Of a stretch of 13,967 nt of DNA, positions 1-13,967 are shown in pieces. A program made the position numbers and the translations under genes. Positions within the stretch are counted from its first letter, which is position 1; every line of letters starts with the position of its first letter. The stretch is from a virus (lineage: Duplodnaviria > Heunggongvirae > Uroviricota > Caudoviricetes): the IMG/VR virus record IMGVR_UViG_2703718846_000001; one strand, written 5' to 3'. The notes beneath the pieces were generated by a model. That model was given only the letters and a program-made list of their open reading frames with translations. It was not told the origin of the DNA and searched no databases.

Positions 1-456
1 GTGAACCTACCACAAGATGGCATCAAACTGCATCGCGGTAACTTCACCGCTATCGGCCAGCAGATCCAGCCTTATCTGGAGGACGGAAAATGCTTTCGCA
101 TGGTGCTTAAACCGTGGCGTGAGAAACGCAGTCTTTCCCAGAATGCACTCAGCCACATGTGGTACAGCGAAATCAGTGAATACCTCATCAGCAGGGGGAA
201 ATCGTTCGCTACCGCAGCATGGGTAAAAGATGCTCTCAAACACACATACCTCGGTTATGAAACCAAGGACCTGGTTGATGTCGTAACCGGCGAAATCACT
301 ACTATCCAGTCGTTACGCCATACTTCCGATCTTGATACCGGAGAGATGTATGTCTTCCTGTGTAAGGTTGAAGCCTGGGCGATGAATATTGGCTGCCACC
401 TGACTATTCCGCAGAGCTGCGAGTTCCAGCTGCTGCGCGACAAGCAGGAGGCGTAA
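1..456 (+). CDS. ybcN: NinB/Orf-family recombination protein homolog (YbcN-like, reported DNA base-flipping protein)
   Basis: 151-aa ORF starting with GTG at window position 1; translation (MNLPQDGIKLHRGNF...KRSLSQNALSHMWYSEISEY...) matches my recollection of E. coli DLP12 YbcN over its full length. Upstream context is not visible, so the start cannot be checked. Confidence 0.75.
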   Translation: MNLPQDGIKLHRGNFTAIGQQIQPYLEDGKCFRMVLKPWREKRSLSQNALSHMWYSEISEYLISRGKSFATAAWVKDALKHTYLGYETKDLVDVVTGEITTIQSLRHTSDLDTGEMYVFLCKVEAWAMNIGCHLTIPQSCEFQLLRDKQEA

Positions 457-457
457 T

Positions 458-625
458 GGCTACACCGCTTATTCGTGTCATGAACGGACACATCTACAGA
501 GTACCAAATCGTCGTAAGCGTAAGCCTGAGCTGAAGCCATCCGAAATACCAACACTGCTCGGATATACCGCTAGCCTGGTTGATAAAAAATGGTTGCGAC
601 TGGCAGCAAGGAGGAATCATGGCTG
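458..625 (+). CDS. ninE: NinE small phage protein
   Basis: 55-codon ORF absent from the supplied track (below its length cut-off): [56 protein letters not shown], basic, lambda NinE-like; overlaps the ybcO start by 7 nt. Confidence 0.65.
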
Positions 626-909
626 ATTTGAGAAAAGCAGCGCGTGGTCGGGAATGCCAGGTAAGAATCACTGGCGTATGTAATGGCAACCCTGAAACGT
701 CTGTACTGGCACATATCCGGCTGGCTGGATTGTGCGGCACCGGTATTAAACCGCCAGACCTTATTGCCACCATTGCCTGTTCTGCCTGTCACGACGAAAT
801 CGACCGCCGCACGCATTTTGTCGATGCTGAGTACGCAAAAGAATGCGCGCTGGAAGGTATGGCGAGAACGCAGGTTATCTGGCTGAAAGAGGGGGTAATC
901 AAGGCGTGA
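619..909 (+). CDS. ybcO: YbcO (DUF1364) Cys/His-rich putative nuclease of the nin region
   Basis: ATG at 619 preceded by AAGGAGG at 608-614; translation [35 protein letters not shown]...[11 protein letters not shown] matches YbcO. The track ORF from 580 is an upstream extension without an RBS. Confidence 0.8.
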
Positions 910-1268
910 ATACTTACCACATCACACTACCCTGGCCTCCGAGCAATAACCGCTATTACCGCCATAATCGCGGGCGCACACACATCAGCGCAGAAGGGCA
1001 GGCATACCGCGATAACGTCACCCGAATCATTAAAAACGCAATGCTGGATATCGGCCTGGCTATGCCAGTGAAAATCCGTATTGAGTGCCACATGCCGGAT
1101 CGCCGTCGCCGTGACCTGGATAATCTGCAAAAGGCCGCTTTTGACGCACTCACCAAAGCAGGTTTCTGGCTGGATGATGCTCAGGTCGTTGATTACCGCG
1201 TTGTGAAGATGCCTGTTACCAAAGGTGGGAGGCTGGAACTGACCATCACCGAAATGGGGAATGAATGA
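906..1268 (+). CDS. rusA: RusA Holliday-junction resolvase
   Basis: 120-aa product from GTG at 906 ([26 protein letters not shown]...[10 protein letters not shown]), near-identical to E. coli RusA as I recall it; GTG overlaps the ybcO stop (GTGA); GAGGGGG at 889-895. Confidence 0.9.
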
Positions 1269-1405
1269 TGTTTGAGTCTTATATGGCAGAGCGTCTTCGC
1301 CGCCGCTGGGTGCGCCTGCGCTTATATCGTTTTCCTGGTTCTGTTTTGACCGATTACCGGATACTGAAGAATTACGCCAAAACCCTGACAGGAGCAGGAG
1401 TATGA
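1265..1405 (+). CDS. ylcG: YlcG-like small protein
   Basis: 46-codon [49 protein letters not shown]; ATG overlaps the rusA stop (ATGA); same position as ylcG in DLP12. Confidence 0.5.
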
Positions 1406-1490
1406 AGTCAGAGATAACAATCAACTAATACTATTTTGTTGATTTTTGCTTGTAATTGGCGTTCTGGTCTGATTTTTGTGGAGTAAGTTG

Positions 1491-1874
1491 ATGCGTGATA
1501 TTCAGATGGTTCTTGAGCGTTGGGGAGCGTGGGCGGCTAATAATCATGAAGATGTGACCTGGTCGTCCATTGCCGCCGGTTTTAAGGGATTAATTACTTC
1601 AAAAGTAAAATCTCGCCCGCAATGTTGTGACGATGACGCGATGATCATTTGCGGGTGCATGGCCCGTCTGAAAAAGAACAACAGCGATTTGCACGATTTA
1701 TTAGTAGATTATTATGTAGTCGGTATGACATTCATGTCACTGGCAGGTAAGCATTGCTGCTCTGATGGTTATATCGGGAAAAGGTTACAGAAGGCTGAGG
1801 GTATAATTGAAGGGATGTTAATGGCATTAGATATCCGGTTAGAGATGGATATCGTTGTTAATAACTCTAATTAA
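1491..1874 (+). CDS. quuD: Late-gene antiterminator Q (QuuD/phage-82/21 type)
   Basis: 127-aa product [24 protein letters not shown]... with Cys-rich segment ([18 protein letters not shown]) typical of Q-family zinc-binding antiterminators; GGAG 9-12 nt upstream of ATG 1491. Confidence 0.85.
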
Positions 1875-1960
1875 TATGCCAGTTGTTTACTAAAAGTTAT
1901 TAAAAATGGGGCGTTGCAACGCCCCCAAAAATAAAGGGTAATATATAACAGAAGGTTTAT
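1875..1960 (+). promoter_or_regulatory. Putative late promoter PR' with qut site just downstream of Q
   Basis: Position only: in lambdoid phages PR'/qut lies directly after the Q gene and before tR'. Candidate -35/-10 pairs (TTGCAA...TAATAT with 19-nt spacing) are weak and I cannot fix the hexamers with confidence. Confidence 0.3.
1907..1924 (-). terminator. Perfect 18-bp GC-rich palindrome followed by a T-rich tract on the minus strand; likely terminator of the nmpC transcript
   Basis: GGGGCGTTGCAACGCCCC at 1907-1924; on the minus strand it is followed by ATTTTTAATAACTTTT; lies ~140 nt downstream of the nmpC stop. Confidence 0.4.
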
Positions 1961-2013
1961 ATAGTTAGAAGCAAGGTTGTGCTCCTAAAGGAAGTGGCTT
2001 GAGGGAGCCACTT

Positions 2014-2053
2014 ATATGTTGGGGAGGCAAAGCCTCCCGCAACATATCTTTTT
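2014..2053 (+). terminator. Rho-independent terminator tR' for the short PR' transcript (read through when Q acts)
   Basis: ATATGTTGGGGAGGC-AAA-GCCTCCC(G)CAACATAT: 15-bp stem with one bulged G, followed by CTTTTT at 2048-2053, ~175 nt after the Q stop. Confidence 0.6.
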
Positions 2054-2063
2054 CGTAATCAGA

Positions 2064-3161
2064 TTAGAACTGGTAAACCAGACCTACAGCAACGATGTCA
2101 TCAGTGCTTACACCGAGTGCTTTAGTGAAGTCATTTTTGTCAAGCAGGTTGATTTTGTAATCAACGAAAGTAGACATATTTTTGTTGAAGTAATAGGTTG
2201 CACCTACATCAACATATTTGACTAAGTCCTGATCGCCCCATACTCCAAGATCCTTACCTTTAGATTGCAGGTAAGCAACGGACGGACGCAGACCGAAATC
2301 GAACTGATATTGTGCAACAGCTTCGAAGTTTTGAGCTTTATTAGCAACGAAGTGATCAGCAAATACAGTCATATTCTGGGTTTCAGAATAGGTAGTGGCC
2401 AGGTAAATGTTGTTAGCGTCATATTTCAGACCTGCGGCCCAAACTTCTGCATTTTTACCGGAAGCAAATACTTCAGGAAGAACTTTCCCTGCATTAACTT
2501 GAGTGTCGGTACGATCAGATTTCGCATAAGTTGCACCGATACCGAATCCTTCGTATTCATAGGTAGCAGAGAAACCGAAGCCATCACCGTTACCTTCAGT
2601 GTAGTTATCGAAATCGCTACGATCGTTTTTGCCTTGGTACTGAGCAGCAAAGTTCAGACCATCAACCAGACCAAAGAAGTCGTTGTTACGATAGGTTGCA
2701 ACACCAGTGGTACGACCAGTCATGAACACATCTGTTTGGGTCCAGGTATCGCCACCGAATTCTGGCAGAACGTCAGTCCACGCACCGATGTCGTATGCTA
2801 CACCGTAGTTACGGCCGTAATCGATTGAGCCGTAGTCACCGAATTTCAGGCCTGCAAATGCAAGACGGGTTTTGTCTTTGGAGGAACCTTGAGATTCAGC
2901 GCGGTTGCCTTTGAATTCATATTCCCACTGACCGAAACCAGTCAGCTGATCGTTGATTTGGGTTTCACCTTTGAAGCCAAGACGGGCATAAGTAGTATCA
3001 CCATCATCTGCATCATTAGAGGAGAAGTAGTGCTTAGCATTAACTTTCCCGTACAGATCCAGCTTGTTACTGTCTTTATTATAAATTTCAGCTGCCTGAG
3101 CAGACATCGCCATCAGTACTGATGCAGCTACAGCAGAAATTGCCACTGTTAATTTTTTCAT
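2064..3161 (-). CDS. nmpC: General porin NmpC/Lc (OmpC/OmpF family), intact
   Basis: 365-aa ORF; N-terminal signal peptide [23 protein letters not shown]|AEIYNK; porin-family sequence throughout; C-terminal ...VGLVYQF ending in Phe as in outer-membrane beta-barrels; no IS interruption. Confidence 0.95.
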
Positions 3162-3734
3162 CGTGAGCCCTTTTTTTTGAACTATTATTAAAAAATGATG
3201 TCACTGCGCGATAAATATTCATCTAATCAATGTGATTATTTCAAGATGTAAGTTTTGGTTTCTCGTTTGATTTGTGAAGTAGATCTCTATTTTTATCTGA
3301 ACTTTTTTCTATCGAATCCTATTTATAGCTCTTGGCTGAATAAAAATAAATCTATTAGCCAATTTATATTAACGGCTGTTATTTATAAGCGCTCTATAAT
3401 TTGAAGGTTCAATTTAAATTGGCTAAAAATAACACTGGAAATTATTTGTTGGTTATTTGTTGAGATTTGCTTATGTATTTGTAGTGGTGTTTTCAATACT
3501 CGGTAGCATTCTCGCAAATATCATTTAGTGGTTTACGTACGTAAAAAATTGGTTATGCTGTTAAGAGTGGTTACTTCGTCACACAGCTTAAACCCGCCGT
3601 CGAGCGGGTTTTTCCATTTTTTGAGTCTCGATATTAGCTGATAACCCAATACCTGAGTTATTCACTGACTCCGAGTCTGTTACGTTTCGTAGTATTCCCT
3701 CAATTTACACCCGCTTTGTCTGCGAGGTGGGGTT
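3162..3734. promoter_or_regulatory. AT-rich 573-bp intergenic region holding the nmpC promoter (minus strand) and the lead-in to the lysis cassette
   Basis: No ORF of 60 aa or more on either strand; long A/T runs; tandem repeat TTATTTGTTG x2 at 3443-3462; 10-bp inverted repeat TAGCCAATTT / AAATTGGCTA at 3356-3365 and 3416-3425. Confidence 0.4.
3590..3626 (+). terminator. Candidate rho-independent terminator ~110 nt upstream of the holin start
   Basis: AAACCCGC-CGTCGA-GCGGGTTT (8-bp stem) followed by TTCCATTTTTT. Confidence 0.35.
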
Positions 3735-3950
3735 ATGAAATCCATGGATAAGTTAACAACGGGTGTCGCCTATGGCACCTCAGCAGGTAGTGCCGGGTAC
3801 TGGTTTTTACAGCTGCTAGATAAAGTCACGCCCTCACAGTGGGCGGCAATTGGAGTGCTGGGTAGCCTGGTATTTGGCCTGCTGACGTACCTGACAAACC
3901 TTTATTTCAAGATTAAAGAAGATAAGCGTAAGGCTGCGAGAGGTGAATAA
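3735..3950 (+). CDS. essD: Phage-21-type class II holin (pinholin S21) with dual-start motif
   Basis: 71 aa, [26 protein letters not shown]...: Met1-Lys-Ser-Met4 dual start (antiholin/holin forms), two TM segments; strong SD GAGGTGGGG upstream. Confidence 0.9.
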
Positions 3951-4447
3951 TGTCGCCATCATTACGCAAGGCTGTAGCAGCTGCTATTGGTGGTGGGGCT
4001 GTTGCCATAGCGTCTGTGCTCATCACTGGTCCGAGTGGTGACGATGGTCTGGAAGGTGTCAGCTACATACCATATAAAGATATTGTTGGTGTATGGACTG
4101 TATGTCACGGGCATACAGGAAAAGACATCATGCTCGGTAAAACGTATACCAAAGCAGAATGCAAAGCACTCTTGAATAAAGACCTTGCCACTGTCGCCAG
4201 ACAAATTAACCCGTACATCAAAGTCGATATACCGGAAACAACGCGCGGCGCTCTTTACTCATTCGTTTACAACGTGGGTGCTGGCAATTTCAGAACATCG
4301 ACGCTTCTTCGCAAAATAAACCAGGGCGATATCAAAGGCGCATGTGATCAGCTACGTCGCTGGACATATGCTGGCGGTAAGCCATGGAAAGGTCTCATGA
4401 CTCGTCGTGAGATTGAGCGTGAAATCTGTTTGTGGGGTCAGCAATGA
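3950..4447 (+). CDS. rrrD: SAR endolysin (phage-21 R-type lysozyme with N-terminal signal-anchor-release domain)
   Basis: 165 aa; N-terminal Gly/Ala-rich weakly hydrophobic segment [18 protein letters not shown]; lysozyme core with [26 protein letters not shown] (E-D-T catalytic motif); start overlaps holin stop (TAATG). Confidence 0.9.
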
Positions 4448-4905
4448 ACAGAGTAACCGCGATTATCTCCGCTCTGGTTATCTGCATCATCGTCTGCCTG
4501 TCATGGGCTGTTAATCATTACCGTGATAACGCCATTACCTACAAAGCCCAGCGCGACAAAAATGTCAGAGAACTGAAGCTGGCGAACGCGGCAATTACTG
4601 ACATGCAGATGCGTCAGCGTGATGTTGCTGCGCTCGATGCAAAATACACGAAGGAGTTAGCTGATGCGAAAGCTGAAAATGATGCTCTGCGTGATGATGT
4701 TGCCGCTGGTCGTCGTCGGTTGCACATCAAAGCAGTCTGTCAGTCAGTGCGTGAAGCCACCACCGCCTCCGGCGTGGATAATGCAGCCTCCCCCCGACTG
4801 GCAGACACCGCTGAACGGGATTATTTCACCCTCAGAGAGAGGCTGATCACTATGCAAAAACAACTGGAAGGAACCCAGAAGTATATTAATGAGCAGTGCA
4901 GATAG
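4444..4905 (+). CDS. rzpD: Rz i-spanin (inner-membrane spanin subunit)
   Basis: 153 aa from ATG 4444 ([23 protein letters not shown]...): N-terminal TM anchor then coiled-coil-like periplasmic domain; start overlaps endolysin stop (ATGA). Confidence 0.9.
4664..4846 (+). CDS. rzoD: Rz1 o-spanin lipoprotein, embedded in the +1 frame of Rz
   Basis: 60 aa, [24 protein letters not shown]... with lipobox VVGC and proline-rich mature part ([16 protein letters not shown]); lies entirely inside Rz in another frame, as in lambda Rz/Rz1. Confidence 0.85.
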
Positions 4906-4907
4906 AG

Positions 4908-4929
4908 TTGCCCATATCGATGGGCAACT
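4908..4929. terminator. 22-bp near-perfect palindrome between convergent Rz and bor; candidate bidirectional terminator
   Basis: GTTGCCCATATCGATGGGCAAC (9-bp arms) directly after the Rz stop and before the bor stop; flanking T-richness is modest. Confidence 0.3.
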
Positions 4930-4936
4930 CATGCAA

Positions 4937-5230
4937 TTATTGTGAGCAATACACACGCGCTTCCAGCGGAGTATAAATGCCTAAAGTAATAAAACCGAGC
5001 AATCCATTTACGAATGTTTGCTGGGTTTCTGTTTTAACAACATTTTCTGCGCCGCCACAAATTTTGGCTGCATCGACAGTTTTCTTCTGCCCAATTCCAG
5101 AAACGAAGAAATGATGAGTGATGGTTTCCTTTGGTGCTACTGCTGCCGGTTTGTTTTGAACAGTAAACGTCTGTTGAGCACATCCTGTAATAAGCAGGGC
5201 CAGCGCAGTAGCGAGTAGCATTTTTTTCAT
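4937..5230 (-). CDS. borD: Bor outer-membrane lipoprotein (serum-resistance moron)
   Basis: 97 aa, MKKMLLATALALLITGCAQQ... with lipobox LITGC; matches lambda Bor closely as I recall it. Confidence 0.9.
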   Translation of the reverse strand: MKKMLLATALALLITGCAQQTFTVQNKPAAVAPKETITHHFFVSGIGQKKTVDAAKICGGAENVVKTETQQTFVNGLLGFITLGIYTPLEARVYCSQ

Positions 5231-5520
5231 GGTGTTATTCCCGATGCTTTTTGAAGTTCGCAGAATCGTATGTGTAGAAAATTAAACAAACCCTAAACAA
5301 TGAGTTGAAATTTCATATTGTTAATATTTATTAATGTATGTCAGGTGCGATGAATCGTCATTGTATTCCCGGATTAACTATGTCCACAGCCCTGACGGGG
5401 AACTTCTCTGCGGGAGTGTCCGGGAATAATTAAAAACGATGCACACAGGGTTTAGCGCGTACACGTATTGCATTATGCCAACGCCCCGGTGCTGACACGG
5501 AAGAAACCGGACGTTATGAT

Positions 5521-5931
5521 TTAGCGTGGAAAGATTTGTGTAGTGTTCTGAATGCTCTCAGTAAATAGTAATGAATTATCAAAGGTATAGTAATATCTTT
5601 TATGTTCATGGATATTTGTAACCCATCGGAAAACTCCTGCTTTAGCAAGATTTTCCCTGTATTGCTGAAATGTGATTTCTCTTGATTTCAACCTATCATA
5701 GGACGTTTCTATAAGATGCGTGTTTCTTGAGAATTTAACATTTACAACCTTTTTAAGTCCTTTTATTAACACAGTGTTATCGTTTTCTAACACGATGTGA
5801 ATATTATCTGTGGCTAGATAGTAAATATAATGTGAGACGTTGTGACGTTTTAGTTCAGAATAAAACAATTCACAGTTTAAATCTTTTCGCACTTGATCGA
5901 ATATTTCTTTAAAAATGGCAACCTGAGCCAT
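5521..5931 (-). CDS. ybcV: YbcV (DUF1398) uncharacterised prophage protein
   Basis: 136-aa product from the ATG at 5931-5929 ([18 protein letters not shown]...), with GGAAGG 8 nt upstream. The track ORF extends to a GTG at 6054 (177 aa); the longer form cannot be excluded. Confidence 0.75.
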
Positions 5932-6216
5932 TGGTAAAACCTTCCATGTGATACGAGGGCGCGTAGTTTGCATTACCGTTTTTATCGTTTCAATCTGGTC
6001 TGACCTCTTTGTGTTTTGTTGATGATTTATGTCAAATATTAGGAATGTTTTCACTTAATAGTATTGGTTGCGTAACAAAGTGCGGTCCTGCTGGCATTCT
6101 GGAGGGAAATACAACCGACAGATGTATGTAAGGCCAACGTGCTCAAATCTTCATACAGAAAGATTTGAAGTAATATTTTAACCGCTAGATGAAGAGCAAG
6201 CGCATGGAGCGACAAA

Positions 6217-6423
6217 ATGAATAAAGAACAATCTGCTGATGATCCCTCCGTGGATCTGATTCGTGTAAAAAATATGCTTAATAGCACCATTTCTATGAGT
6301 TACCCTGATGTTGTAATTGCATGTATAGAACATAAGGTGTCTCTGGAAGCATTCAGAGCAATTGAGGCAGCGTTGGTGAAGCACGATAATAATATGAAGG
6401 ATTATTCCCTGGTGGTTGACTGA
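6217..6423 (+). CDS. ybcW: YbcW small acidic uncharacterised protein
   Basis: 68 aa, [40 protein letters not shown]...; GGAG 8 nt upstream; divergent from ybcV across a 285-bp intergenic region. Confidence 0.7.
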
Positions 6424-6587
6424 TCACCATAACTGCTAATCATTCAAACTATTTAGCCTGTGACAGAGCCAACACGCAGTCTGTCACTGTCAGGAAAGTG
6501 GTAAAACTGCAACTCAATTACTGCAATGCCCTCGTAATTAAGTGAATTTACAATATCGTCCTGTTCGGAGGGAAGAACGCGGGATGT

Positions 6588-6782
6588 TCATTCTTCATCA
6601 CTTTTAATTGATGTATATGCTCTCTTTTCTGACGTTAGTCTCCGACGGCAGGCTTCAATGACCCAGGCTGAGAAATTCCCGGACCCTTTTTGCTCAAGAG
6701 CGATGTTAATTTGTTCAATCATTTGGTTAGGAAAGCGGATGTTGCGGGTTGTTGTTCTGCGGGTTCTGTTCTTCGTTGACAT
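6588..6782 (-). CDS. ylcI: YlcI-like small DNA-binding protein with Arc/Mnt-type ribbon-helix-helix signature
   Basis: 64 aa; basic N-terminal tail (MSTKNRTRRTTTRN) then IRFPNQMIEQINIALEQKGSGNFSAWVIEACRRRL, which follows the beta-strand / helix / G-x-S turn / helix pattern of Arc (NLRWPREVLDLVRKVAEENGRSVNSEIYQRVMESF). Confidence 0.7.
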   Translation of the reverse strand: MSTKNRTRRTTTRNIRFPNQMIEQINIALEQKGSGNFSAWVIEACRRRLTSEKRAYTSIKSDEE

Positions 6783-6929
6783 GAGGTTGCCCCGTATTCA
6801 GTGTCGCTGATTTGTATTGTCTGAAGTTGTTTTTACGTTAAGTTGATGCAGATCAATTAATACGATACCTGCGTCATAATTGATTATTTGACGTGGTTTG
6901 ATGGCGTAGATGCACGTTGTGACATGTAG

Positions 6930-7170
6930 ATGATAATTATTATCATTTTGCGGGTCCTTTCCGGCGATCCGACAGGTTACGGGGCGACGACCTCGCGGGT
7001 TTTCGCTATTTATGAAAATTTTCCGGTTTAAGGCGTTTCCGTTCTTCTTCGTCGTAACTTAATGTTTTTATTTAAAATACCCCCTAAAAAGAAAGGAAAC
7101 GACAGGTGCTGAAAACGAACTTTTGGGCCTTTGTCGTTTCCTTTCTCTGTTTTTGGCCGTGGAATGAACA
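6930..7170 (+). other. Cohesive-end site cos (cosQ region, cosN 6982-6993, cosB with R3, IHF region, R2, R1) upstream of nu1
   Basis: ...CGACAGGTTACG|GGGCGACGACCT|CGCGGGTTTTCGCTATTTATG... is near-identical to the lambda right-end/left-end junction as I recall it; CGTTTCC-type R elements at 7035-7044 (R3), 7094-7100 (R2, inverted) and 7135-7141 (R1); R2/R1 sit in a 15-bp inverted repeat (7090-7104 / 7132-7146). Confidence 0.8.
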
Positions 7171-7690
7171 ATGGAAGTCAACAAAAAGCAGCTGGCTGAC
7201 ATTTTCGGTGCGAGTATCCGTACCATTCAGAACTGGCAGGAACAGGGAATGCCCGTTCTGCGAGGCGGTGGCAAGGGTAATGAGGTGCTTTATGACTCTG
7301 CCGCCGTTATAAAATGGTATGCCGAAAGGGATGCTGAAATTGAGAACGAAAAGCTGCGCCGGGAGGTTGAAGAACTGCGCCAGGCCAGCGAGGCAGATCT
7401 CCAGCCAGGGACTATTGAGTACGAACGCCATCGACTTACGCGTGCGCAGGCCGACGCACAGGAACTGAAGAATGCCAGAGACTCAGCTGAAGTGGTGGAA
7501 ACCGCATTCTGTACTTTCGTGCTGTCGCGGATCGCAGGTGAAATTGCCAGTATTCTCGACGGGATCCCCCTGTCGGTGCAGCGGCGTTTTCCGGAACTGG
7601 AAAACCGACATGTTGATTTCCTGAAACGGGATATCATCAAAGCCATGAACAAAGCAGCCGCGCTGGATGAACTGATACCGGGGTTGCTGA

Positions 7691-7716
<26 letters not shown>
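7171..7716 (+). CDS. nu1: Terminase small subunit Nu1
   Basis: 181 aa, MEVNKKQLADIFGASIRTIQNWQEQGMPVLRGGGKGNEVLYD... (N-terminal winged HTH); lambda Nu1-like over full length; DLP12 equivalent is nohD. Confidence 0.9.
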
Positions 7717-11400
<3,684 letters not shown>

Positions 11401-11417
<17 letters not shown>

Positions 11418-12717
11418 TCTCCCGCATATTGCCAGCATGGCCTTTAATGAGCCGCTGATGCTTGAACCCGCCTATGCGCGGGTTTTCTTTTGTGCGCTTG
11501 CAGGCCAGCTTGGGATCAGCCGCCTGACGGATGCGGTGTCCGGCGACAGCCTGACTGCCCAGGAGGCACTCGCGACGCTGGCATTATCCGGTGATGATGA
11601 CGGACCACGACAGGCCCGCAGTTATCAGGTCATGAACGGCATCGCCGTGCTGCCGGTGTCCGGCACGCTGGTCAGCCGGACGCGGGCGCTGCAGCCGTAC
11701 TCGGGGATGACCGGTTACAACGGCATTATCGCCCGTCTGCAACAGGCTGCCAGCGATCCGATGGTGGACGGCATTCTGCTCGATATGGACACGCCCGGCG
11801 GGATGGTGGCGGGGGCATTTGACTGCGCTGACATCATCGCCCGTGTGCGTGACATAAAACCGGTATGGGCGCTTGCCAACGACATGAACTGCAGTGCAGG
11901 TCAGTTGCTTGCCAGTGCCGCCTCCCGGCGTCTGGTCACGCAGACCGCCCGGACAGGCTCCATCGGCGTCATGATGGCTCACAGTAATTACGGTGCTGCG
12001 CTGGAGAAACAGGGTGTGGAAATCACGCTGATTTACAGCGGCAGCCATAAGGTGGATGGCAACCCCTACAGCCATCTTCCGGATGACGTCCGGGAGACAC
12101 TGCAGTCCCGGATGGACGCAACCCGCCAGATGTTTGCGCAGAAGGTGTCGGCATATACCGGCCTGTCCGTGCAGGCTGTGCTGGATACCGAGGCTGCAGT
12201 GTACAGCGGTCAGGAGGCCATTGATGCCGGACTGGCTGATGAACTTGTTAACAGCACCGATGCGATCACCGTCATGCGTGATGCACTGGATGCACGTAAA
12301 TCCCGTCTCTCAGGAGGGCGAATGACCAAAGAGACTCAATCAACAACTGTTTCAGCCACTGCTTCGCAGGCTGACGTTACTGACGTGGTGCCAGCGACGG
12401 AGGGCGAGAACGCCAGCGCGGCGCAGCCGGACGTGAACGCGCAGATCACCGCAGCGGTTGCGGCAGAAAACAGCCGCATTATGGGGATCCTCAACTGTGA
12501 GGAGGCTCACGGACGCGAAGAACAGGCACGCGTGCTGGCAGAAACCCCCGGTATGACCGTGAAAACGGCCCGCCGCATTCTGGCCGCAGCACCACAGAGT
12601 GCACAGGCGCGCAGTGACACTGCGCTGGATCGTCTGATGCAGGGGGCACCGGCACCGCTGGCTGCAGGTAACCCGGCATCTGATGCCGTTAACGATTTGC
12701 TGAACACACCAGTGTAA
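11401..12717 (+). CDS. C: Head maturation protease / scaffold C
   Basis: GTG at 11401 gives MTAELRNLPHIASMAFNEPLMLEPAYARVFF..., the lambda gpC N-terminus; overlaps the B 3' end by 17 nt. The track ORF from 11263 is an in-frame upstream extension. Start codon uncertain by one codon. Confidence 0.85.
12112..12717 (+). CDS. nu3: Scaffolding protein Nu3, in-frame internal start within C
   Basis: ATG at 12112 in the C frame yields a 201-aa product (MDATRQMFAQKVSAYTG...), the size and position of lambda Nu3. Confidence 0.65.
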   Translation: MDATRQMFAQKVSAYTGLSVQAVLDTEAAVYSGQEAIDAGLADELVNSTDAITVMRDALDARKSRLSGGRMTKETQSTTVSATASQADVTDVVPATEGENASAAQPDVNAQITAAVAAENSRIMGILNCEEAHGREEQARVLAETPGMTVKTARRILAAAPQSAQARSDTALDRLMQGAPAPLAAGNPASDAVNDLLNTPV

Positions 12718-12726
12718 GGGATGTTT

Positions 12727-13059
12727 ATGACGAGCAAAGAAACCTTTACCCATTACCAGCCGCAGGGCAACAGTGACCCGGCTTATACCGCAACCGCGCC
12801 CGGCGGATTGAGTGCGAAAGCGCCTGCAATGACCCCGCTGATGCTGGACACCTCCAGCCGTAAGCTGGTTGCGTGGGATGGCACCACCGACGGTGCTGCC
12901 GTTGGCATTCTTGCGGTTGCTGCTGACCAGACCAGCACCACGCTGACGTTCTACAAGTCCGGCACGTTCCGTTATGAGGATGTGCTCTGGCCGGAGGCTG
13001 CCAGCGACGAGACGAAAAAACGGACCGCGTTTGCCGGAACGGCAATCAGCATCGTTTAA
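12727..13059 (+). CDS. D: Head decoration protein D
   Basis: 110 aa from ATG 12727 ([27 protein letters not shown]...), lambda gpD-like; the track ORF starts two codons earlier at 12721. Confidence 0.9.
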
Positions 13060-13078
13060 CCTGACCCTTCATCACTAA

Positions 13079-13099
13079 AGGCCGCCTGTGCGGCTTTTT
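13079..13099 (+). terminator. Small GC hairpin plus T7 tract in the D-E intercistronic region (attenuator/terminator-like)
   Basis: GCCGC-CTGT-GCGGC followed by TTTTTTT (13093-13099). Confidence 0.3.
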
Positions 13100-13114
13100 T
13101 TACGGGATTTTTTT

Positions 13115-13372
13115 ATGTCGATGTACACAACCGCCCAACTGCTGGCGGCAAATGAGCAGAAATTTAAGTTTGATCCGCTGTTTCTGCGTCTCTTTTTCCG
13201 TGAGAGCTATCCCTTCACCACGGAGAAAGTCTATCTCTCACAAATTCCGGGACTGGTATTGGTGCTCATACGCACTCCGTTGCGATTGGCTCACATGGAC
13301 ACACCATCACCGTTAACGCTGCTGGTAACGCGGAAAACACCGTCAAAAACATCGCATTTAACTATATTGTGA
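13115..13372 (+). pseudogene. E: Truncated major capsid gene E (first ~48 codons only, then out-of-frame readthrough into stf DNA)
   Basis: ATG 13115 gives [48 protein letters not shown] (lambda gpE N-terminus); after ~13258 the translation becomes [37 protein letters not shown] and stops at 13372. Full-length gpE is ~341 aa. Confidence 0.8.
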
Positions 13373-13383
13373 GGCTTGCATAA
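13259..13383 (+). pseudogene. stf: 3'-terminal remnant of side tail fibre gene stf (~40 codons)
   Basis: In the frame ending at TAA 13381-13383 the sequence reads [40 protein letters not shown], the His-rich C-terminus of lambda Stf as I recall it, with the stop overlapping the tfa start (TAATG). Confidence 0.65.
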
Positions 13384-13967
13384 TGGCATTCAGAATGAGT
13401 GAACAAGCACGGACCATAAAAATTTATAATCTGCTGGCCGGAACTAATGAATTTATTGGTGAAGGTGATGCATATATTCCGCCTCATACAGGTCTGCCAG
13501 CAAACAGTACCGATATTGCACCACCAGATATTCCTGCTGGCTTTGTGGCTGTTTTCAACAGTGATGAGGCATCGTGGCATCTCGTTGAAGACCATCGGGG
13601 TAAAACGGTTTATGACGTAGCGTCAGGGGACGAGTTATTTATTTCTGAACTCGGTCCGTTACCGGAAAATGTTACCTGGTTATCGCCGGAAGGGGAGTTT
13701 CAGAAGTGGAACGGCACAGCTTGGGTGAAAGATGCAGAAGCAGAAAAACTGTTCCGGATCCGAGAGGCGGAAGAAATAAAAAACAGCCTGATGCAGGTAG
13801 CCAGTGAGCATATTGCGCCACTTCAGGATGCTGTAGATCTGGAAATCGCAACGGAGGAAGAAACCTCATTGCTGGAAGCCTGGAAAAAGTATCGGGTGTT
13901 GCTGAACCGTGTTGATACATCAACTGCACCTGATATTGAGTGGCCTACGAACCCTGTCAGGGAGTAA
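13383..13967 (+). CDS. tfa: Tail fibre assembly protein Tfa
   Basis: 194 aa, [54 protein letters not shown]..., lambda Tfa-like over full length; stop at the last base of the window. Confidence 0.9.

Follow-up and report, generated by a model that had tools for sequence, protein, structure and literature searches.

The closest described counterpart of the locus considered here is DLP12 of Escherichia coli K-12, a lambdoid prophage remnant whose morphogenetic genes were lost by an internal deletion ending in the stf-tfa region; in MG1655, nohD is followed by aaaD' and tfaD. In textbook illegitimate deletion in E. coli, the choice of endpoints scales with repeat length and proximity. Site-specific inversion is also known from this part of phage genomes, with Pin/Gin/Cin/Min systems having their site in the 3' part of a tail fibre gene, beside tfa-type chaperone genes. 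Resident remnants exchange DNA with incoming phages, as experiments by De Paepe et al. have demonstrated for lambdoid phages recombining with K-12 DLP12 through homology in Rz, cos, Nu1 and A, and likewise with Rac and Qin through homology in stf and tfa (PMC3945230).

Here, we analyze a stretch of 13,967 nt (IMG/VR record IMGVR_UViG_2703718846_000001), referred to below as the window, with positions counted from its first letter. It is the late region of a DLP12 (argU) type lambdoid prophage of E. coli, and its junction between the capsid gene E and the tail fibre gene stf is compared with K-12 DLP12, with an undeleted relative and with other prophage remnants.

A lambda-like prophage at the DLP12 site

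In alignments, the window matches both K-12 DLP12 and full-length argU-site prophages, and its genes follow the order of that site. One megablast piece spans positions 1-13258 in many complete E. coli genomes, with an identity of 97.5-99%; in 799 genomes, at least 80% of the window is covered at one place. In strain MFDS1019527 (NZ_CP169309), whose prophage adjoins tRNA-Arg and intD, the genes under the match run from ybcN, ninE, ybcO, rusA, ylcG, quuD, a porin gene (nmpC) and essD, through rrrD, rzpD, bor, ybcV, ybcW, ylcI and nohD (Nu1), to terminase A, W, the portal, an S49 protease, the decoration protein and the start of the major capsid gene. K-12 DLP12 shares the site and this backbone from ybcN to nohD, as well as tfa, ybcY, tfaX and ompT on the right. 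From Rz to nucleotide 144 of E (4444-13258), the DNA is 99% identical to that of phage lambda. Two twin contigs (L003 and L004), 99.98% identical to the window, continue downstream of tfa into ybcY, tfaX', a hydrolase gene, ompT, envY, ybcH and nfrA, the DLP12 right flank, while the argU/intD side is seen in relatives only, the left end of the prophage lying beyond the window and the twin contigs. The nmpC porin gene is an intact 365-codon ORF in the window (2064-3161, minus strand), unlike its IS5-interrupted counterpart in K-12 DLP12.

The head genes to the left of the scar, all on the plus strand, are intact, with lambda's lengths for Nu1, A, W, B, C and D and proteins 98.5-100% identical to lambda's. 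They comprise Nu1 (nohD; 7171-7716), the small terminase subunit of 181 aa (180/181 residues identical to lambda); A (7691-9616), the large terminase subunit of 641 aa (638/641); W (9613-9819), the head-tail joining protein of 68 aa (68/68); B (9816-11417), the portal of 533 aa (530/533); C (11398-12717), the protease of 439 aa with the nested Nu3 scaffold (437/439); and D (12727-13059), the head decoration protein of 110 aa (Pfam HDPD, E 3.6e-20). Intact as well is tfa (13383-13967, plus strand), encoding a tail fibre assembly chaperone of 194 aa with 181 of 194 residues identical to lambda Tfa and a match to Pfam PF02413 Caudo_TAP (E 1.6e-44) of 151.6 bits, above the cut-off of 22.1. A full-length match to the Rfam candidate sRNA family IS009 (RF02111; 227.8 bits; 13726-13924, plus strand) lies wholly inside the tfa coding sequence.

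The original prediction, drawn from the letters alone, had named a complete cos and a terminase, portal, protease/scaffold and decoration set retained together with tfa. The gene set is as described, and the cosQ and cosB regions flanking cosN are present and 99% identical to lambda, but cosN is not strictly complete: at 6982-6993 (plus strand) it reads GGGCGACGACCT, with a single mismatch, A replacing G at the sixth of the 12 cohesive-end nucleotides (G6A). The canonical lambda cosN, GGGCGGCGACCT, occurs in lambda, in a related locus (L002) and in 24 other sampled loci, and among the sampled loci the G6A variant was seen only in the window and the twin contig L003.

The junction between E and stf

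On the left of the scar, window 13000-13258 corresponds to lambda 6020-6278 at 99.2% identity and to phage 434 at 100%. Lambda E starts at 6135, so that window 13115-13258 (plus strand) equals lambda 6135-6278, or E nucleotides 1-144, which places exactly 48 codons (MSMYTT...SQIPGLV) where E-like coding had been predicted to end, at about 13258 and codon 48. Only these codons remain of the 341 that encode the full-length, HK97-fold shell protein. The fragment aligns to Pfam PF03864 Phage_cap_E over residues 5-48 with 19.5 bits, below the curated cut-off of 22.9 because only 48 residues remain.

On the right, window 13254-13967 corresponds to lambda 21844-22557 (the 3' end of orf-314 and orf-194/tfa) at 92.9% identity, and the 'stf-tfa segment is 99.86% identical to stf-tfa of E. 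coli O145 RM9872, with the first 246 nt identical. The stf remnant (13255-13383, plus strand) consists of 42 codons in the stf frame (13255-13380) and a stop codon (13381-13383) that overlaps the tfa ATG (13383-13385; TAATG). Positions 13259-13383 had been read as stf-derived, in a frame different from that of E and ending at the tfa start; the in-frame match to the end of lambda orf-314 and to RM9872 stf bears this out, and the predicted number of about 40 codons becomes 42. With hundreds of bases of near-identity to known genes on either side, a chance match is not an issue.

Because the two remnants are in different frames, the E frame continues through the stf sequence to a TGA at 13370-13372. 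The resulting fused ORF (13115-13372, plus strand) has 85 aa, 48 from E and 37 from 'stf sequence in the wrong frame; it stops 11 nt short of the tfa start and is probably a meaningless by-product. No Rfam family was found in the scar, the IS009 match inside tfa being the only hit.

The alignment to both parents places the breakpoint to within four nucleotides. The E parent reads ...CCGGGACTGGTA|AACATGG and the stf parent ...ACTGTCGGTA|TTGGTGC, and the window reads ...CCGGGACTGGTA TTGGTGC; since the parents share only GGTA (13255-13258, plus strand), the crossover is placed inside this microhomology, a feature that the original prediction had proposed looking for. E abuts stf directly, and no IS, att site, invertase-type site or inserted DNA is present at the window junction. 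An IS end, the mark of an IS-mediated adjacent deletion, is thus lacking there, and the direct join, the 4 nt shared and the absence of a mobile element or recombinase site are those of microhomology-mediated, RecA-independent deletion.

A deletion of about 16.3 kb

E. coli O145 RM9872 (NZ_CP028379, L007) has an undeleted prophage whose chromosomal site, right flank and gene order are those of the prophage studied here. On this locus, E lies at 3551-4576 and stf at 17169-20129; the left flank of the scar ends at 3694 and the right flank begins at 20001, with 16,306 bp between them (about 15.6 kb in lambda coordinates). Between these two points lie the remainder of E, the genes FI, FII, Z, U, V, G, T, H, M, L, K, I, J and lom, and the bulk of stf, of which all but the last 129 nt, about 96%, is lost from the window. 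A missing block of more than 10 kb had been estimated from gene order, and the relative bears this out. RM9872 and MFDS1019527 both resemble the window in site and gene order, at 98-99% identity over 1-13258 and 98.4-99.9% over 13255-13967, and differ from it by having the 16.3-kb E-to-stf block. The twin contigs pass from tfa straight into the DLP12 right flank, and no full-length E or tail gene is found elsewhere in the prophage, in keeping with the predicted absence of a major capsid and tail.

The collinear flanks in RM9872, the shared GGTA and the direct join without inserted DNA are the features expected of illegitimate deletion. With an ancestor reconstructed from relatives that are 98-100% identical, it is highly probable from the sequence comparison that the scar stems from a single short-homology deletion that took about 16.3 kb out of a lambda-like DLP12-site prophage. 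Illegitimate recombination at GGTA in the argU-site prophage would have connected E nucleotide 144 with the final 129 nt of stf, at the cost of the remainder of E, of FI and FII, of every tail gene, of lom and of about 96% of stf. No evidence contrary to the deletion itself was found. The event appears to be recent, since every head gene left in place is still intact and identity to the twin contigs reaches 99.98%.

The deletion is distinct from that of K-12. Aligned to the window, K-12 DLP12 runs to 7998 (A nucleotide 308) and resumes at 13529 (tfa nucleotide 147), which agrees with the statement in the original prediction that the K-12 remnant is truncated inside the terminase gene. Whereas K-12 lost this stretch, the window joins E nucleotide 144 to stf -129 (counted from the stf stop), keeping A, W, B, C, D and an intact tfa, and so retains about 5.5 kb absent from K-12. 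Because the window retains sequence that K-12 lacks and the junctions differ, the two deletions are independent, as had been suspected.

The original prediction had also proposed comparing the junction across E. coli genomes. No contiguous copy of the exact junction occurs in 5,426 complete E. coli genomes, and no match was found in a set with one genome per species. Six contigs from NCBI draft assemblies encode the exact 85-aa fused ORF, and both of the contigs that were read carry the DLP12 right flank.

Three other accounts of the junction were weighed. An assembly or sequencing artefact, in which a chimeric join formed across the multi-copy stf-tfa repeat, would fit the absence of the exact junction from complete genomes and the repetition of stf'-tfa in polylysogenic genomes; it is scarcely credible given the identical junction on six draft contigs (in assemblies including GCA_012349805.1 and GCA_002227105.1), the similar junctions at the same stf site in closed genomes (21EVA, MB19, FORC 064 and others), and a 4-nt overlap that cannot cause a graph mis-join. 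The repetition of these segments also invites the idea of a chromosomal rearrangement by recombination between two resident prophages, one supplying E' and the other 'stf-tfa, as E. coli genomes hold several lambdoid prophages with these segments (a median of three matching places per genome). Both flanks are, however, those of the DLP12 site, with ybcN...nohD upstream and ybcY, tfaX', ompT, envY and nfrA downstream; in RM9872, identical flanks at that site enclose the complete block; and homologous exchange is excluded by the mere 4 nt shared at the junction. An origin in two prophages is thereby largely refuted and very improbable.

The third account takes the remnant for a selected functional unit, either a helper-dependent packaging element, with cos, terminase, portal, protease and decoration genes but no capsid gene, or a tfa expression cassette that has been domesticated. 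In its favour, none of the six head genes is disrupted, tfa is intact both here and downstream in those remnants with the same stf breakpoint whose gene calls were read, and the end of the fused ORF 11 nt before the tfa start could let translational coupling persist. A recent deletion explains the integrity of the genes equally well, however, and the junction is rare, on six draft contigs and in none of the complete genomes. The cosN substitution is absent from 25 relatives, no promoter-like site is present on the plus strand of the retained 125 nt before tfa, and particles of an element without a capsid gene need a helper of the same capsid type. In comparison with phage satellites (PICI-like), which are recognised by an integrase and by regulation, replication and helper-exploitation genes of their own, together with demonstrated mobilisation, the window displays an ordinary lambdoid late region. 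Selection for such a unit is therefore highly unlikely, and the short-homology deletion, a well-known kind of ordinary prophage decay apart from its reused stf breakpoint, stands as the preferred explanation of the scar.

A recurrent breakpoint in stf

Several other remnants resemble the window in having D and a 5' fragment of E joined by short microhomology to the 3' region of stf and tfa, and differ from it in their E breakpoint. In NWU_3, at the DLP12 site, E nucleotide 191 is joined to stf -580 via the 7-nt TTATCCG; in 21EVA, at the Qin site, E nucleotide 464 is joined to stf -127; and in EC261 and ETEC4088, whose remnant lies beside pinR, ydfK and ompN, E is joined at about nucleotide 540 to the inside of tfa. 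The stf breakpoint of 21EVA lies within 2-3 nt of that of the window, and the fusion is in frame, unlike that of the window, which is out of frame. At 8216-8800 of the 21EVA locus (L005), E residues 1-154 (...FDPVEVD) are followed by IGAHTHS...RLA, and PGAP annotates two pseudogenes there; judged from this open frame, a capsid-tail fibre fusion protein could be made.

The shared stf breakpoint reads GTCGGTA|TTGGTGCTCAT and lies at about lambda 21845-21849. To see whether this agreement was due to chance, the upstream sequence was inspected in 240 loci, half of them from metagenomes (120) and half from IMG/VR (120), that contain the 31-mer immediately following the junction. Native stf precedes the 31-mer in 232 of these loci, as the canonical 12-mer in 222 and with a single-base change in 10, and five loci are too short to read upstream. 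In the remaining loci of this sample (L012, L039, L056, L080, L153 and L228), other prophage DNA is joined at these nucleotides.

At least 10 independent deletions with different left partners, at several chromosomal sites, end within 5 nt of the stf breakpoint. The left partners are E nucleotide 144 (window); E nucleotide 464 (21EVA, L039 and L249); stf-internal sequence (L012, MB19 and 20AR0354); Nu1 nucleotide 507 (L056); C (L080); the V/G region (L228); a point downstream of a divergent capsid gene (L153); codon 18 of a DUF1441 gene (L255-257, 11 contigs); codon 33 of a P-type replication gene (L258 and seven complete genomes); and codon 27 of a Z-like gene (L259). The DUF1441, P-type and Z-like partners were found by a protein search with the out-of-frame read-through peptide. 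The junctions with E nucleotide 464 (21EVA), with stf-internal sequence (MB19 and 20AR0354) and with the P-type gene (seven genomes) are contiguous in closed genomes. Nine of the 10 left partners end in TA and 8/10 in G(G/A)TA, giving 2-6 nt of homology with stf GGTA(T), and the fusions are found both in and out of frame.

In the same sample, the right endpoints of other deletions are spread between -7340 and -183, counted from the stf stop, and their microhomologies measure 0-9 nt. About 20 other deletions in related loci show this range too, so that junctions of this style are general in these prophages. In the unbiased sample, six of 22 distinct junctions fall in the prespecified 5-nt window (binomial P ~2e-12). 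This tight reuse indicates that the choice of endpoint is not random, and the stf site is a preferred deletion endpoint in lambdoid prophages. Unlike in textbook illegitimate deletion, one endpoint is reused with many partners at only 2-6 nt of homology. We found no literature on such a deletion hot spot in stf.

The breakpoint falls at the 5' edge of the part of lambdoid stf that is conserved in the long tail fibre genes (gp37) of T4-type phages. With L007 19600-20713 as query, the similarity to gp37 (74-80% identical DNA; query positions 381-530) is confined to the final 134-150 nt of stf, and in the case of one Klebsiella phage the alignment begins at -122. The scar keeps almost exactly the stf module shared with these unrelated T4-type phages.

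Three further endpoints recur. The 3' end of Nu1, at about window 7675-7683 (Nu1 nucleotides 505-513; L002 25675-25683), is a second recurrent endpoint, where four independent deletions in related loci retain Nu1 as far as ...GAACTGATA and continue in A (L039), a portal gene (21EVA), J (L061 and ML35) or the stf hot spot (L056). Within stf, positions -212/-213 (L002 47376-47377) are the right endpoint of two deletions with different left partners (L200 and L082), and positions -1198/-1199 (L002 46390 / L007 18931) are that of two more, also with different left partners (L180 and L201).

Possible causes of the endpoint reuse

Selection on a protein product cannot explain the precision of the stf endpoint, as out-of-frame fusions share the exact nucleotides; a DNA-level bias is more likely to lie behind the reuse. 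One refinement of the deletion account would have the right breakpoint set by a site-specific event and the left end by chance microhomology. Candidate events are a sequence-specific nick or break, arrest of replication or template switching at the site, and a recombination signal where the conserved His-box/C-terminal module of tail fibre genes has its 5' edge. The joining of at least 10 left partners within 5 nt of the site, the mixture of frames that speaks against selection on the protein, and the position at the edge of the segment conserved with gp37 argue for such an event, as do the recurrent endpoints at the Nu1 3' end (four partners), stf -212/-213 and stf -1198/-1199. The site is also never a left endpoint in IMG/VR, where all 18 matches are unrelated chance ones, although this one-sidedness could reflect the loss of deletions that reach rightward into tfa and host genes.

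Against a site-specific right end stand several searches for a signal. A serine-invertase (Pin/Gin/Hin) origin calls for a 26-bp site with AAACC..GGTTT-type half sites at the junction, and none is present: with the e14 pix repeat (sequence from PMC12529663) as query, no match within four mismatches, and no AACC..GGTT, was found at or near the breakpoint in the window, L002, L005 or L007, and there is no hix-like sequence within four mismatches either. The locus resembles Pin/Gin/Cin/Min systems in its place in the tail fibre gene and in having pin genes just downstream of tfa in relatives, and it differs from them in that there is no crossover-like site, the window locus has no pin gene and the partners are without dyad symmetry. 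No IS or inserted sequence lies at any junction, and predicted DNA folding at the stf and Nu1 hot spots is that of shuffled sequence (z about 0), giving no sign of a hairpin or cruciform. The left partners share only G(G/A)TA or TA, no Chi site was seen, and the laboratory lambda deletions b519 and b515 (phage O276) start elsewhere and leave the stf site unused; the h434 phage has a different stf. On balance, we regard a site-specific right end, added to the short-homology deletion, as an even bet.

Likenesses to Chi, EcoKI, LexA, IHF, dif/Xer and shufflon sfx sequences, judged by eye, amount to partial matches at best and were discarded as chance; the XerC arm GGTGCGCATAA, for instance, matches GGTGCTCATAC only partially, with the cleavage position in the wrong place. 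Just after tfa lies an invertase-crossover-like dyad, CTTGAACCTTGGTTTTAAC, at about 10950 of the twin contig L003 (~100 nt past the window end) and at 20810 of the RM9872 locus; from its sequence, it may be a vestige of an inversion system.

A bolder claim is that the 5' edge of the stf C-terminal (His-box) module is a one-sided, nucleotide-precise deletion hot spot, implying an undescribed sequence-specific break, arrest or strand-transfer activity. We put this forward tentatively, at slightly less than even chances. The Nu1 3' end may be a second hot spot, and both may channel decay toward loss of the morphogenetic block while sparing tfa.

Consequences for prophage decay and recombination

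Having lost the shell and all tail genes, the remnant would be unable to build capsids or tails on its own, and would act only as a reservoir of lambda-homologous DNA (Rz-cos-Nu1-A...D and tfa) for recombination with incoming lambdoid phages. As a recombination substrate it offers about 9 kb of DNA, from Rz to E', that is 99% identical to lambda, in addition to tfa. The complete genome deposited for phage PhiR26_1 (L006, PV340555.1; listed host MG1655) has, at positions 4768-8606, a tfa directly followed by ybcY, a fragment resembling tfaX, a hydrolase gene and ompT; this tfa is 99.6% identical to that of the window, and the genes that follow are those of the DLP12 right flank, including host-side genes. 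Records of this type, combining the tfa allele with ybcY and ompT, are compatible with exchange between prophage and phage.

The scar is one more example of resident prophages being whittled down, and documents a DLP12 lineage that decayed independently of that of K-12. In this, it adds to a known kind of remnant; the recurrent breakpoint is the unexpected part. If the stf hot spot is real, it would explain why many E. coli remnants consist of an upstream gene fragment, the last 42 codons of stf and an intact tfa. If specific nucleotides are indeed reused, the domestication of prophages would be channelled in part by hot spots at the DNA level, and not by selection alone.
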